From assembly GCA_019057815.1 (NCBI GenBank), contig JAHLWR010000011.1:1-64000 (forward strand): a stretch of DNA of 64,000 nt. Direction: 5' to 3'. Of this stretch, positions 40,361 to 49,395 are shown in pieces. Positions within the stretch are counted from its first letter, which is position 1, and every line of letters starts with the position of its first letter. The translations under genes were made by a program, and so were the position numbers. A model generated the notes under the pieces. That model saw nothing but the letters and a program-made list of their open reading frames with translations, was not told where the DNA came from and did not search any database. The DNA is from Candidatus Heimdallarchaeota archaeon. GTDB taxonomy: Archaea; Asgardarchaeota; Heimdallarchaeia; Heimdallarchaeales; Heimdallarchaeaceae.

Positions 40361-40436
40361 TGGTAGTCCCCAGGAGATTCGAACTCCTGTCCCGGGATTC
40401 AGAGTCCCAGATGTTTGACCACTACACTAGGGGACT
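40361..40436 (-). tRNA. tRNA-Gln(CTG), CCA encoded
   Basis: agtcccctagtgtagtggtcaaacatctgggactCTGaatcccgggacaggagttcgaatctcctggggactacca; A1-U72. Confidence 0.97.
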
Positions 40437-40512: not shown

Positions 40513-41866
40513 CTTAATACATAGCAGAAATCCCCTAACTTTAGGTGGGGGATGAATGCGATAGAAACATCTATTCATCTATTACTCGTCTTTTTATAGT
40601 GAAAAAAGTACTAAGGAAATAAGGAAATGAACTGATGTTAACCTACAAAGTGCAACTGTACCCGAACAAACAGCAACAAGCAAAACTTGGTGAACAGTTG
40701 GATATTTGTAGAAAACTCTATAATAGACTACTAGAAGAGTGTAAGAAAGAACAAGAGAAGGGAGAAAAACTCACACAAATCAAAACTCAATCGTTTATAG
40801 TAGGGCTAAAAAATACTTCTATGCCCGAATTGAAAGGAGTACATTCTAAAGTTTTACAGATGGTCAACTACACTCTATGGACAAATATCAAGAGTCTATC
40901 CCAATTAAAAAAGAATGGGCATAAAATCGGTCACTTACGTTTTAAAGGAAAAGGATGGTACAAGACTATCAACTATAACCAGAGCGGTTTCAAGATAGAC
41001 GAAAACAAAAACAAACTAACCTTTTCTAAGATTGGGACTATCAATTGTAGAGGACTAAATAATAGAGTAAGAGAAAACAAAATTAAAGGGATAATACTCA
41101 AACGCACTCAAACGGGTAGATGGTTCGCGAATATACAAATAGAAAACTCTCCAGTAGTTCTTCCTAAAACCTCTAAAAGCGTAGGGATAGATGTAGGGAT
41201 AAATTCTTACGCAGTGGATTCGGATGGACGAGAGATAGAGAATCCTAAAAACATAGAAAGACAATTAAAGAAACTTAAAAATAAGCACAAATCTCTTAGT
41301 CGTAAAAAGCAAGGTTCAAAGAATTGGTTAAAAGCCAAATATCAGTTGGCTAAACTCTACACTAAAGCTGTTGACCAGCGTAAAGACTTCTTACATAAAG
41401 TCTCAAACTTTTATGTAGATAATTATGATATTATCTGTGTGGAAAACTTGAATATTAAAGGACTCACACAGAAAGGTAATAAGAAACACAAGCGGTCACG
41501 CACACTCCATCGTAACATTCTCGACGCTTCATGGGGAATATTCTTCAACTATTTATCTTATAAAGCTGTAAACGCTGATAAAGAACTAGTTAAAGTTCCA
41601 CCAAGAGGTACTACTCAAGAATGTTCCAGATGTGGAGAGATAGTTCCTAAGACATTAAATGATAGGACACACTCTTGTCCTTATTGCGACTTAGAGATAG
41701 ACCGCGACTATAACGCTTCAATAAACATTTTGAAGAGGGGTAAGGGATATGCCTCTTTACTTGTGGAGAACAGACCTCTAATCACTATCACTGCTTCTGC
41801 TTTCGTTAGTGGTCAAGTCTTTTCAATGAATCAAGAAACGCCTACCTTTAGGAAGGTGTAGTTCAT
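40513..41866 (+). mobile_element. IS200/IS605-family tnpB-only (IS1341-like) element; ends approximate
   Basis: Left hairpin atcccctaactttaggtgggggat (about 40530-53); right end gaaacgcctacctttaggaaggtgtagttcat; no tnpA. Confidence 0.85.
40635..41861 (+). CDS. tnpB: RNA-guided endonuclease TnpB
   Basis: YKVQLYP HTH, GIDVG, VENL, CSRC..CPYC, DRDYNA: RuvC D-E-D intact. Confidence 0.95.
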   Translation: MLTYKVQLYPNKQQQAKLGEQLDICRKLYNRLLEECKKEQEKGEKLTQIKTQSFIVGLKNTSMPELKGVHSKVLQMVNYTLWTNIKSLSQLKKNGHKIGHLRFKGKGWYKTINYNQSGFKIDENKNKLTFSKIGTINCRGLNNRVRENKIKGIILKRTQTGRWFANIQIENSPVVLPKTSKSVGIDVGINSYAVDSDGREIENPKNIERQLKKLKNKHKSLSRKKQGSKNWLKAKYQLAKLYTKAVDQRKDFLHKVSNFYVDNYDIICVENLNIKGLTQKGNKKHKRSRTLHRNILDASWGIFFNYLSYKAVNADKELVKVPPRGTTQECSRCGEIVPKTLNDRTHSCPYCDLEIDRDYNASINILKRGKGYASLLVENRPLITITASAFVSGQVFSMNQETPTFRKV

Positions 41867-44565: not shown

Positions 44566-44640
44566 TGGTAGTCCCGTGGAGACTCGAACTCCAGTCGCCG
44601 GGGTCAAAGCCCAGTATGATTGCCGCTACACTACGGGACT
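44566..44640 (-). tRNA. tRNA-Gln(TTG), CCA encoded
   Basis: agtcccgtagtgtagcggcaatcatactgggctTTGaccccggcgactggagttcgagtctccacgggactacca. Confidence 0.97.
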
Positions 44641-44750
44641 ATTGTTGTCGTCAAATTTCTTTGACAACAAATCATTTTACACTTTGGTTTTAAATTTTTC
44701 TTTTAAACTAAGAAGAAATCTATATTGTAACTAGTGATTACAGCACAGCA

Positions 44751-46712
44751 CTAGTATGCAATTTCATCCCGATTTATGACAGATTTTTTTACCCACGAAT
44801 CACGAAGTGTAATTATTCTATTGAAGACCAAGTTATCTTTACTTGAATCTACAATATCTATACAGAAATAGCCTAATCTTTCAAACTGGTAACGTGAACC
44901 GATATCTGCATTTTGTAGGAATGGTTCAACATAAGCACTGACAATTTCGAGGGAGTGAGGGTTCAAATAATCTGTAAAATCTTCTCCTTCTTCCAGTTCC
45001 ATTGGGTTCTCTTTTATGAAAAGACGATCAGACAATCTTACTTCAGCTTTAATTGCATCGATTGCAGAAATCCAATGGATTGTGCCTTTAATTTTTCGCT
45101 CAACAACAGATGAATCACCATTAGTTTCTGAATCGTAGCTACAATGGATTTCAGTAATTTCCCTTGTTTCATCATCCCTTAGAACTTTTTCACATCTGAT
45201 AATATATGCGTATTTTAGGCGAACATCTTTACCGAGAGTAAGTCTATAATAATCTTCTGGAGGATCTTCCATGAAGTCTTCTTGCTCGATGTAAAGTACT
45301 TTAGAGAATTTGATTTTTCTTGTTCCCATCTCCTTATTGCGCGGGTGATTAAGAATAGTAATTTCCTCAAATTCATCCTTTGGATAGTTAGTTATAACGA
45401 CCTTTAAAGGTCGTAGAACACTCATTACACGAGGGCATCTTTCGTCCAAATCTTCTCTAACGCAATTATCAAAAATTGATTGATCAATAATAGCTTCGCG
45501 CTTTGATACACCGATTTCTTTATAGAATTTTCGAATCGCATCTGCAGTAATTCCTCTTCTTCGTATACCCACTATTGTTGGCATCCGAAGATCATCCCAA
45601 CCATTGACATATCCTTCCTTTACTAATCGGATAATATTTCGTTTTCCTAGAACAGTGTAAGTAAAGTTTGATCTTGCAAATTCTATTTGTTGGGGCTTAA
45701 AGATGGGGTTCCCATTTTCATCATCTAATTGTTCCAAAAACCAATCATATATTTGACGATGGATTTCAAATTCCATTGTACAAATTGAATGCGTTATACC
45801 TTCTATTGAGTCTTCTAGACCATGAGCCCAATCATACATTGGATAAATACACCATTTATCACCTGTATTATGATGTTTTTTGTGAAGAATGCGATAAATA
45901 AGAGGATCGCGCATTAAAAGATTGGGAGATGCCATATCAATCTTTGCGCGTAAAACCTTTGAACCATCGGAAAATTCACCGTTTTTCATTCTTTCGAAAA
46001 GGTCTAGATTTTCCTCTATTGTCCTATCTCTAAAAGGGCTTTCTTTTCCTGGTTCGGTTATAGTTCCTCGATACTCTCTGATTTCGTCTACACTTAAGTC
46101 ATCAACATATGCTTTTCCTTTTTCTACTAGTTGTACAGCATATTCATAGAATTGATCAAAATAATCTGATGCATATAATAATCGATCCTCCCAATCTACA
46201 CCTAACCATTTTGCATCTTCAATCTGAGCTTTAACATATTCCACATCTTCAGTGGTAGGATTAGTATCATCAAAACGCCAGTTGAACTTGCCGTTATATT
46301 CTACTGCAATTCCATAGTTCAGAAGAATTGATTTCGCATGACCAATGTGCAAGTATCCGTTAGGTTCAGGAGGAAAACGGGTATGAACACGACCATTATA
46401 CTTGTTTGTCTTCATATCTTCATTGATAATTGCGCGTATAAAATCAGTACCTTCACCCAATTCACTTTCTTGCTTATCTTCTTTTAGCAATTCAGGATAT
46501 TTTTCTCGTGCAATTTGTTGAATTTCAGTGGTTGTTAGTGAACTAATTAAATTAATCGTCTCAACAACTGTCTCTTTTACAGTTTTTGCTTCTTTACGTA
46601 ATTCTGGATGAGCTGACATTATCATTCCCACTACTGGACCAACTTTAGCTGAACCATGGTCTAGAGTGTTCTGAACAACAAATTTTTCGCATATCCTTTC
46701 TACTGAAGTCAT
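44751..46712 (-). CDS. glnS: Glutaminyl-tRNA synthetase (bacterial-type body, archaeal GluRS-like N-terminal domain)
   Basis: [69 protein letters not shown]. Confidence 0.92.
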
Positions 46713-46782: not shown

Positions 46783-46961
46783 GTCCCGAAAAATTGAATT
46801 GAAACGTATTTTCCAAATACAAGATTATTTAACGTTTCAACGACTAATACACGTAAACAGAAAATCGCCTCTACATTTTTAGTACTTCTCAGATAATATT
46901 GTCTCGGGACAAAAACCTTTTTATACCCAATCACGTAAACTATTTTGTCCCGAGACGAAAT
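46783..46961. promoter_or_regulatory. Inverted-repeat operators bracketing a TATA box
   Basis: gtctcgggacaaaa 46901-14 and ttttgtcccgagac 46943-56 are perfect inverted repeats around tttttata; partial site gtcccgaaaa at 46783; cacgtaaac occurs twice. Confidence 0.75.
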
Positions 46962-47522: not shown

Positions 47523-48263
47523 ATGAATGATGAACACGAAACAAAAGGTCCAGGGAGACCCCGAAAATATGCAACATCAGCAGAGCGAAAACGAGCTTAT
47601 AGGGAGAGAAAAAAGGAGAGACTCGCTCAAATGCAAAAAGGTGTTGCAAGACTAGAGAAGAAGGTGAGTAAATTGGGTATAACTAAAGAAAGATCTGATA
47701 AGTTGGATTCTCTACTAAATGAAATCGAGACACCAATGGCTAAATTTGCACCTTCTGAAATCGCAGAAATGGAAAATGATGAACTCTTGGAATTGCGAGA
47801 CATCTTGAGACACTGGTTGCAGGATCATAGAGGGCTTGGAGGAATAGTGACTCAATTGAGCAATGCTATAATTCCAAGAGCGTATGCTTCCTTTGATCAA
47901 TTGGAGTTATTTGGTCCAAGACAAGAAGAAGAAGAAGGAGAGGTAAAATACATTCCCTCGATGGTCGAAACAGTGATAGACAAAAAACGTCAAAATGCAA
48001 GAGCATATTACTTTTCATCATCAAGTAACAGATATAGCAGTAGTAACCTTGCAGAACTATTCGAACAAATCACCTTGCTCTATCTTGTTGAAGCTGAGAT
48101 CGCTAAGAGACGAAGAGACAAAGTTGAAGATTTTGCTATCGTGCAGCTAGAGACTAGAATCAAGGAACTAGAATCACTGCTAGAGGATAGTGAAGAAGCT
48201 AAAACTGAACCTTACTATAGAGGGGGTGAATCAGGTGGAAAAAGAGGTGATATCAATGAGTAA
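47523..48263 (+). CDS. AT-hook + bZIP-like coiled-coil protein, paralog A
   Basis: GPGRPRK; AERKRAYRERKKERLAQMQKGVARLEKKV; second coiled coil LETRIKELESLL. Confidence 0.75.
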   Translation: MNDEHETKGPGRPRKYATSAERKRAYRERKKERLAQMQKGVARLEKKVSKLGITKERSDKLDSLLNEIETPMAKFAPSEIAEMENDELLELRDILRHWLQDHRGLGGIVTQLSNAIIPRAYASFDQLELFGPRQEEEEGEVKYIPSMVETVIDKKRQNARAYYFSSSSNRYSSSNLAELFEQITLLYLVEAEIAKRRRDKVEDFAIVQLETRIKELESLLEDSEEAKTEPYYRGGESGGKRGDINE

Positions 48264-49395
48264 GAAGAATTTAGAGTCAAAAGAAAATAAACTGAGAGGT
48301 AAACCAATCGTTCTTGAATTTGGTTCAGCATTTACAAGAATAGGATTTTCGAGTGAAGATGCACCTCGAATAGTTAAACCAACGATTGTAGGTTATAATG
48401 ATGTAGTATCAAAGAATGACAATCTTACATCGATTTTAACCGAAACTAACAAACAAGCGTTTGTTGGCATTGCAGCTATTGAGAAAAGGAAGGAACTCGA
48501 AATAGTATATCCAATTAAAAACAGAAAAATAAATGACATGCAAGCTCTTAAAGTTATGATCCAATACGCAATTGAGAGAGACTTATCAATTACACCCGAT
48601 TTGCATGCAGCAATCGTTATTCTTCCATATCCAATCAGTGAAGAGGAAAAAGAAGAAATTACTAAAATGCTTTTAGACGATCTAAATTTTCCTGGTGTAT
48701 ATGTTTCATCTAGTGAAAATATGCCCCTATACAGTATAGGAAGAACAACTGGTATAGTTGTTGATTCAGGATACGAAAAAACAGATATTATACCTATTTT
48801 AGATGGTAAAATCATCACTAAAGCTGTTAAAAGCTTAAACATAGGTGGATATCACGTTACAAACAAGCTTAGAGAATCTCTGAGAGAGCAAGATTTCACA
48901 TATACAGATGAGGAAGACAAATTCTTTGGAGCTGCAAGAAACATCAAAGAAAATCTATGCTATGTAGCTTTAAATGCGGATAAGGAAATAGAACTAGCTT
49001 CTAAAGTTTCAGGGATGAGAAAAATACACAAGCTTCCAAATGGGGAAAAATATATTGTTGAACTCCAACGTTTTTTGGCGACTGAGATCTTGTTTCAACC
49101 AGAGATGATTGATTTGAAAGAAAAACCATTGCATGAACAAATTATCGATTCGATTCAGTCTTGTGATACTAAAAACCAATCATCGTTGTGGTCTAATATT
49201 GTTATTGCAGGTGGAAATTCTATATTACCAGGATATCATGCTAGATTAAATCACGAACTAAAATCACTAGCACCTGAAAACGAAGATGTAAGAATATATT
49301 CTACACCATCAAACACTAGCTTTTCTTCATGGATAGGCGCAAGTATCCTTAGTTCTAGAATGGAGTTTAGTAAACATTGGATTACAAAAAAGTAA
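48256..49395 (+). CDS. Actin-family protein (divergent)
   Basis: IVLEFGS..TRIGF..ED.PR...PT.VG, YPIK, TGIVVDSG, IKE.LCYVA, LPNG, E.LFQP, IVIAGG, WIGASILS; SD GAGGTGA before ATG 48256. Confidence 0.95.
   Translation: MSKKNLESKENKLRGKPIVLEFGSAFTRIGFSSEDAPRIVKPTIVGYNDVVSKNDNLTSILTETNKQAFVGIAAIEKRKELEIVYPIKNRKINDMQALKVMIQYAIERDLSITPDLHAAIVILPYPISEEEKEEITKMLLDDLNFPGVYVSSSENMPLYSIGRTTGIVVDSGYEKTDIIPILDGKIITKAVKSLNIGGYHVTNKLRESLREQDFTYTDEEDKFFGAARNIKENLCYVALNADKEIELASKVSGMRKIHKLPNGEKYIVELQRFLATEILFQPEMIDLKEKPLHEQIIDSIQSCDTKNQSSLWSNIVIAGGNSILPGYHARLNHELKSLAPENEDVRIYSTPSNTSFSSWIGASILSSRMEFSKHWITKK

Follow-up and report, generated by a model that had tools for sequence, protein, structure and literature searches.

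Results

A chimeric glutaminyl-tRNA synthetase gene next to tRNA-Gln genes

The window analyzed here is a stretch of 64,000 nucleotides from the genome of Candidatus Heimdallarchaeota archaeon (assembly GCA_019057815.1, contig JAHLWR010000011.1, positions 1 to 64,000). On its reverse strand lies glnS (44751..46712, including the stop codon), whose open reading frame (ORF), together with matches to TIGR00440 and Pfam, defines a chimeric glutaminyl-tRNA synthetase (GlnRS) of 653 amino acids. The protein begins with a helical module (residues 1-78; 46479..46712, reverse strand) which profile searches, BLASTP and an AlphaFold2 (AF2) model identify as a homologue of the N-terminal ('YqeY') domain of archaeal glutamyl-tRNA synthetase (GluRS). 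An acidic linker (residues 79-88; 46449..46478, same strand), marked by low predicted local distance difference test (pLDDT) values in the full-length AF2 model, joins it to the GlnRS body (residues 89-642). The body contains a class I catalytic domain with HIGH and VLGKRN motifs (residues 109-423; 45444..46388, reverse strand; PF00749, E 8e-101) and the beta-barrel anticodon-binding domains (residues 426-619; 44856..45437, reverse strand; PF03950 and PF20974).

Two tRNA-Gln genes follow on the same strand. The tRNA-Gln(UUG) gene (44566..44640; ARAGORN, Rfam 57 bits and sequence) starts 110 nt downstream of the glnS stop codon, and the tRNA-Gln(CUG) gene (40361..40436; ARAGORN, Rfam and sequence) lies 4.3 kb downstream. 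These are the only tRNA-Gln genes that ARAGORN detected in the 3.7-Mb genome. Both are of archaeal type, with A1:U72 and A73, and both also have G2:C71, U3:A70, A37 and an encoded CCA end.

The body is a GlnRS of bacterial type

The glnS product is a GlnRS of bacterial type, as seen from its domain homologies and its conserved residues. Pfam recognized tRNA-synt_1c followed by two C-terminal domains, and the GlnRS equivalog model TIGR00440 (NCBIfam) was covered from end to end (model positions 1-524 of 524) with a score of 702.6 bits (cut-off 425.8). TIGR00463, the model for archaeal GluRS, reached 383 bits, under its cut-off of 402, in an alignment that begins at residue 6. Among solved structures, E. 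coli GlnRS scored 667 bits over residues 87-642, the human enzyme 399 bits and the yeast enzyme 371 bits; the archaeal GluRS 3AII, which aligned from residue 2, gave 206 bits. GlnRS from many bacterial phyla share 55-65% identity with the body.

Alignment to E. coli GlnRS showed that residues R30, Y211, C229, Q255, R260 and K270 (E. coli numbering) are conserved, so that the glutamine-selecting set of R30, Y211, C229 and Q255 is identical in all four positions. The cysteine lies in the motif HSICTMEF, where the genome's own GluRS has an arginine (THIFRSIEF). The HIGH motif is intact, and the KMSKS loop reads VLGKRN, compared to VMSKRK in E. coli, with the catalytic Lys270 retained. Two further positions are changed, Asp235 and Leu136 both being replaced by Ile. 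In E. coli GlnRS, Asp235 recognizes the base pair G3:C70. Heimdall-clade enzymes have V, I or N at this position, and the nearest bacterial enzymes have A or D. The Heimdall clade also has a 6-residue insert missing from those bacterial enzymes, which in the glnS product is DDENGN and precedes Q255. From these features we infer that the enzyme would charge tRNA with glutamine.

The unusual KMSKS loop, with Gly for Ser and Asn for the last Lys, and the loss of Asp235 would also fit a GlnRS-like paralogue that makes no Gln-tRNA-Gln (being inactive, regulatory or directed to another substrate), leaving GluRS and the amidotransferase GatDE as the sole route. Against this, the glutamine-binding residues, HIGH and Lys270 are all retained and the score is well over the equivalog cut-off. 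In addition, the catalytic domain has a mean identity of 75% among 12 Heimdall orthologues compared, and whole-protein identity across orthologues ranges from 62 to 95%, which suggests purifying selection. We consider a paralogue of this kind very unlikely.

The original prediction, made from the window sequence, had described a bacterial-type GlnRS body with Cys in place of the GluRS Arg, an N-terminus resembling that of archaeal GluRS, and tRNA-Gln genes 110 nt and about 4 kb downstream. Each of these is borne out by the data, and the linkage to tRNA-Gln turned out to be conserved in relatives (see below). Its reading of LGKRN as the equivalent of KMSKS holds in that the motif is present with Lys270, but this is the variant of one small subclade, most orthologues having VLSKR[RN].

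The N-terminal module and the N-terminus of archaeal GluRS are homologous

In a pairwise BLASTP comparison, residues 1-108 of the glnS product were colinear with the N-terminal part of the resident GluRS, starting from residue 5 (29% identity, E 6e-8). A profile of residues 1-80, built from 25 orthologues and run against 1.84 billion proteins, matched 551 proteins at E<=1e-3, among them archaeal GluRS N-termini at E-values down to 1.4e-15. Ten of these matches were scanned for their architecture. Nine were archaeal-type GluRS or fragments thereof, aligned at the GluRS N-terminus (one, a 793-aa protein, having an additional N-terminal extension), and the tenth was a 293-aa protein that combines the segment with an aminotransferase-like part. 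Among the profile matches, those cluster members that are named belong to Thermoprotei, Nitrososphaerota, Sulfolobales and Heimdallarchaeota. The module is thus homologous to the N-terminus of archaeal GluRS, the similarity being far beyond chance.

The module is common to about 55 Heimdall orthologues of around 640 aa, and the bacterial relatives, at 562 aa, are without it. It sits ahead of the DFIRxIINED helix, which in bacterial GlnRS is the start of the protein. AF2 modelled the isolated module as four main helices and a short C-terminal turn (pLDDT 91). In the full-length model the GlnRS body was likewise predicted with confidence and residues 78-88 had a pLDDT below 50, indicating disorder; the length of this linker differs among orthologues.

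Residues 1-85 of archaeal GluRS have been named a disordered YQEY domain (Nureki 2010, PMC2978374), and our data are consistent with a kinship between the module and YqeY. The matches behind the assignment to the YqeY fold are weak, which counts against that part of our interpretation. Foldseek returned nothing at E<=0.001 when the model of the module was compared to the PDB. By VIA-align, B. subtilis YqeY (1NG6) reached a Z-score of 4.7 (root mean square deviation 1.8 over 47 residues), and residues 119-184 of yeast GlnRS (3TL4) reached the same value; numerous unrelated helical folds scored just as well. With hhalign, the module aligned to the GatE tail at the tail motif with an E-value of 0.004 and a probability of 8%, compared to E 0.65 for a control region. 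The Pfam families for YqeY and the GatB/GatE tail (PF02637, PF09424) had no match in the glnS product. The N-terminal domain of eukaryotic GlnRS was also considered as a relative of the module and set aside, as hhalign gave an E-value of only 0.13.

Linkage of glnS to tRNA-Gln genes and covariation of base 37

We surveyed the linkage of glnS to tRNA-Gln by comparing the positions of a 3′-end pattern of A1:U72 tRNAs with glnS coordinates in all 83 genomes of the class, whose families are coded f1 (that of the source genome) to f6. In f1, 17 of the 21 genomes have a tRNA-Gln-type gene no more than 6 kb from glnS; the corresponding figures are 11 of 12 within 0.7 kb for f5 and 4 of 9 within about 4 kb for f6. 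Among 59 bacterial control loci, 7 had a tRNA-Gln-type gene at 3 kb or less.

Linkage was accompanied by a difference at base 37. The nine tRNA-Gln genes examined from six genomes lacking GlnRS (in f2, f3, f4 and one in f5) all have G37. By contrast, A37 is found in tRNA-Gln genes linked to glnS, including both isoacceptors of the source genome. The simplest explanation of the linkage and of the co-varying A37 is that the glnS product is active, rather than a paralogue of the kind considered above.

The f5 genomes that carry glnS have two complete sets of tRNA-Gln genes (f5 loci L179-L192; genomes G208, G256, G136, G250, G241 and G097, the last of which lacks glnS). The native set is dispersed and mostly intron-bearing, with G37 and A73. 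The other, a pair without introns that carries A37 and G73, adjoins glnS. Two f5 genomes lacking glnS were checked: in G097, the sequences show the native set only, and G280 gave no match to the G73 pattern. The glnS-linked tRNAs of f5 share 81% identity with the native archaeal set and 54-65% with bacterial tRNA-Gln, so the second set arose by duplication. Import of these tRNAs along with the synthetase gene was ruled out by the same identities and by the conservation of A1:U72.

A37 and G73 presumably both belong to the identity set of E. coli GlnRS. Passages of an identity review confirm the acceptor stem, the discriminator base, the 10-25 pair and the anticodon as identity elements, and A37 is not named in those passages.

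Several points weigh against co-adaptation of the tRNAs to GlnRS. The anticodon was individually checked in just a subset of the pattern matches counted in the linkage survey, and the A37 correlation comes from a small sample. It has a single exception, a tRNA-Gln(UUG) with A37 and G73 (L206) on contig 116 (1564 nt) of the f2 genome G160, in which no glnS was found; this may represent either an unassembled glnS cassette or a foreign contig. Lastly, G73 is native in f2, a family without GlnRS, and is therefore not diagnostic by itself.

glnS was found in three families of Heimdallarchaeia

Among 301 Asgard genomes surveyed, 40 carry glnS. All belong to a single class and to three Heimdallarchaeia families, and they include genomes assembled as single contigs. 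By family, glnS was found in 20 of 28 genomes of f1 (besides the source genome), in 12 of 22 of f5, and in 9 of 11 of f6 at E<=1e-100, two of the latter being partial matches under the curated cut-off. None was found in the three other families of the order or in the other Asgard classes sampled in this survey. The reading frames of f1 and f6 are long and include the N-terminal module; those of f5 encode about 580-600 aa, without it. In one GlnRS sequence labelled as Hodarchaeales, a polybasic extension takes the place of the module.

Three database GlnRS sequences carry unexpected labels. P0112, labelled Methanosarcinales, groups with Anaerolineae; P0032, labelled Bathyarchaeia, falls inside the Heimdall clade; and P0065, labelled Odinarchaeota, has a Hodarchaeales sequence as its sister. 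These labels may result from mis-binning or from additional transfers.

All archaea were described as lacking GlnRS in reviews, the latest of them from 2022 (PMC9499178). A 2024 preprint mentions in passing a GlnRS encoded beside cox genes in Hodarchaeales and Kariarchaeaceae. Our literature search found no paper describing a chimera of GlnRS with the N-terminal domain of archaeal GluRS.

Origin of the GlnRS body

For phylogenetic analysis, eukaryotic GlnRS sequences were gathered via a giant-virus homologue and E. coli glnS was taken from its genome record. A FastTree phylogeny of 85 rows separated eukaryotes from prokaryotes (support 99) and placed a single Asgard clade (98) inside the bacteria. 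A more careful tree of 41 rows, calculated in IQ-TREE with the posterior mean site frequency (PMSF) model and rooted on eukaryotes, recovered the eukaryote/prokaryote split (100/100) and the Heimdall clade with the N-terminal module (100/100). The latter grouped with the Hod/Odin-labelled enzymes (97/89), and the whole was nested in a bacterial group (96/86); bacteria formed one clade in none of the 200 bootstrap trees. A first FastTree phylogeny, limited to the nearest bacteria and rooted on GluRS, had shown a basal Heimdall clade, a placement that we attribute to sampling and long branches since it disappeared once eukaryotes and divergent bacteria were added.

Two results weigh against import from bacteria. 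In an approximately unbiased (AU) test, enforcing bacterial monophyly cost 20.9 log-likelihood units with a p-value of 0.19, so that an Asgard clade outside the bacteria stays unrejected. In a 56-row set containing GluRS and viral long branches, the tree constrained in this way was ahead of a quick free tree by 12 log-likelihood units. Import of the glnS body from bacteria is favoured by the nested tree, but the AU test keeps this conclusion short of proof.

Source of the N-terminal module

The module was not copied from the resident GluRS, whose own domain scores just 39.5 bits on the profile. The top scores, 73-78 bits, belong to GluRS of another Heimdallarchaeia family, f5, and in the global library the best matches score 73 bits as well. 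In a tree of 86 columns, the GlnRS modules grouped with the N-terminal domains of Heimdall GluRS with support values of 57/22, i.e. the grouping is unsupported. A native donor is plausible.

Among the GluRS genes of the class (L243-L286), those of f1 are unusually divergent, at 56-61% identity between genera and with one genus having a GluRS at just 40%. In f5 there are two GluRS types, one of which has a GlnRS-like PPEPSGYLHIGH motif.

The chimera and GluRS are 31% identical in the N-terminal domain and 36% identical in the catalytic domain. Divergence is thus about proportional, and a comparison of this kind does not tell a graft apart from common ancestry. It would fit an alternative history in which the module is ancestral: GlnRS would have arisen in the stem of Heimdallarchaeia and eukaryotes by duplication of an archaeal GluRS already equipped with the domain, Heimdall archaea would have retained it, and bacteria would have received a copy from this lineage and lost the domain. 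The AU result, the lead of the bacterial-monophyly tree in the 56-row set and the basal position of the Heimdall clade with restricted sampling all point in the same direction. On the other side, the careful tree nests the Asgard enzymes in bacteria, with the bacterial clade absent from every bootstrap tree, and the sister Asgard clade has no module, so that several losses would be required as opposed to one gain. The module also precedes an intact bacterial-type N-terminal helix, and its profile has no detectable similarity to the N-terminal domain of eukaryotic GlnRS. Furthermore, glnS was found in just three families of one Asgard class, and its body is much closer to E. coli GlnRS than to the human enzyme (667 vs. 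399 bits). An ancestral module is therefore unlikely in our view. Equally doubtful, if not slightly more so, is the related idea that the Heimdall enzyme survives from the lineage that founded GlnRS, ancestral module included, and that bacterial GlnRS came from an Asgard rather than a eukaryotic donor.

The indirect route is retained

The genome, which is 95% complete, encodes a separate archaeal GluRS (on contig 26) besides glnS. The gatD and gatE genes, both above their cut-offs, are adjacent to each other outside the window (contig 9, 5407-8650), and gatB was not found in the genome. Since gatD and gatE are retained, GlnRS has been added to the indirect route and has not replaced it. Retention of both genes would also fit if the glnS product were the paralogue without Gln-tRNA-Gln synthesis discussed above.

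Of the 83 genomes in the class, 78 were found to have gatE. When 21 GatE sequences were placed in a tree, they separated with a support of 100 into two paralogue clades, type a (533-649 bits on the family model) and type b (320-440 bits). Family f1 has only type b, both types coexist in one family, and the families without GlnRS have mostly type a. Type-b GatE retains 86 of the 95 columns invariant in type a, with the changes concentrated in the C-terminal tRNA-sensing tail. It probably still functions as an amidotransferase. The possibility that the divergent GatDE serves asparagine was rejected because the genome encodes an asparaginyl-tRNA synthetase (370 bits vs. a cut-off of 343). The direct and indirect routes may thus serve the same two tRNA-Gln.

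Genomic neighbourhood of glnS

An actin-family gene, an Asgard signature (PF00022, 262 bits), lies on the forward strand at 48190-49395, 1.5 kb from glnS, and the GC content is even along the window. Together with the orthologues in single-contig Asgard genomes, these features show that the contig is not chimeric; the genome is archaeal. The 55-65% identity of the body to GlnRS of many bacterial phyla could in principle reflect a bacterial gene brought in by a binning or assembly artefact. Such a gene would not be expected to continue in frame from an archaeal-type domain, to have archaeal-type tRNA-Gln genes and the Asgard actin gene as neighbours at uniform GC, or to recur with the same architecture in dozens of Heimdall genomes, closed single-contig ones included. 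We give this explanation next to no weight.

An IS605-type OrfB/TnpB gene (40635-41861, forward strand), with helix-turn-helix (HTH), OrfB_IS605 and Cas12f-like TNB domains, is located between tRNA-Gln(CUG) and glnS. This gene may account for the 4-kb spacing of the tRNA-Gln genes here, compared to about 0.3-5 kb in relatives.

The intergenic region upstream of glnS (window positions 46901-46956 and 46849-46940) contains two 14-nt arms, GTCTCGGGACAAAA / TTTTGTCCCGAGAC, which form a perfect inverted repeat around a spacer of 28 nt, as well as a third copy of TCGGGAC and a direct repeat, GTTTACGTG. A TATA-like sequence, TTTATTATAT, occurs only 25-34 nt ahead of the glnS ATG, leaving little room for a leader. 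Upstream of glnS we saw no obvious mini-ORF of cognate codons such as has been described for other synthetase genes in the same genome.

Discussion

Taken together, our data are best explained, with a probability of roughly 0.7, by a predicted working GlnRS with an imported bacterial body and a GluRS-type N-terminal module, to which the tRNAs have co-adapted and beside which GatDE has been retained. According to this account, which is built on sequence comparisons, the bacterial-type GlnRS body was most likely gained from bacteria in a common ancestor of several Heimdallarchaeia families. In f1 and one other family, a GluRS-type module of about 80 residues would then have been placed before the complete bacterial N-terminus, via a flexible acidic linker. 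The module could act as an extra tRNA-binding handle, offsetting the absence from archaeal tRNA-Gln of G73, U1:A72 and G3:C70, which are identity elements in bacteria. On the enzyme side, loss of Asp235 would match tRNAs with U3:A70. On the tRNA side, A37 in the glnS-linked tRNA-Gln, as opposed to G37 in relatives without GlnRS, would represent the corresponding adjustment. The gene would have been maintained beside its tRNA substrates, along with the divergent GatDE. The role of the module, the direction of transfer and the division of work with GatDE are all deduced from these comparisons.

The original prediction had proposed a horizontally acquired GlnRS grafted onto a native domain. The acquisition agrees with the nested tree (bootstrap 96), although the AU test (p 0.19) leaves the alternative standing. 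As for the graft, the homology is clear and a native donor plausible, but the module is no copy of the resident GluRS domain, given its 39.5 bits. The genome check for gatD, gatE and gltX that it had called for found gatD, gatE and a separate GluRS, and the chimeric contig that it had named as a concern is dispelled by the actin gene, the GC content and the orthologues.

The enzyme resembles bacterial GlnRS such as E. coli GlnS (1GTR/1QTQ/1O0B; TIGR00440), with which it is colinear over residues 87-642 (667 bits). It differs from E. coli GlnS by the 88 residues of N-terminal module and linker, Ile at position 235, VLGKRN and the DDENGN insert, and its setting differs by the archaeal host and by tRNA-Gln with A1:U72, A73 and U3:A70. 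As in archaeal non-discriminating GluRS (M. thermautotrophicus 3AII; PMC2978374), an N-terminal domain of about 80 residues precedes a class Ib and beta-barrel architecture. Unlike in archaeal GluRS, to which the body is 26-44% identical, Cys replaces Arg at the amino acid-selecting position.

Appended tRNA-binding modules are known from other GlnRS. In Deinococcus radiodurans (2HZ7; Deniziak 2007, PMC1865053), the body is likewise fused to a module of the YqeY/GatB-tail kind, a proposed aid to tRNA-Gln binding. The Deinococcus module is C-terminal and has 215 aa, whereas that of Heimdall is N-terminal, has about 80 aa and derives from archaeal GluRS. There is no C-terminal YqeY in the Heimdall enzyme: its match to NF011291 ends at position 560 of 769 (9-560), and the protein stops 11 residues past the GlnRS body. 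Eukaryotic GlnRS (yeast 3TL4/4H3S; Grant 2012, PMC3333875) also has an appended N-terminal helical tRNA-binding domain. In contrast to the eukaryotic enzyme, the Heimdall body groups with bacteria, and the eukaryotic R1 and R2 domains (PF04558, PF04557) are unmatched in Pfam.

The closest archaeal relatives of eukaryotes thus carry a GlnRS, contrary to what was stated in the 2022 review. Two routes around the barrier to its use in archaea are suggested: in f1, a helper domain derived from GluRS together with a changed tRNA base 37; in the sister family f5, an additional, dedicated pair of tRNA-Gln genes that carry A37 and G73. The old barrier hypothesis thereby becomes directly testable at the bench. 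If the kinship to YqeY is confirmed, this would be a third case, independent of the other two, in which GlnRS has acquired a tRNA handle resembling YqeY. Globally, these archaea would provide a natural system in which the direct and indirect routes to glutaminyl-tRNA are found together in one archaeal cell.

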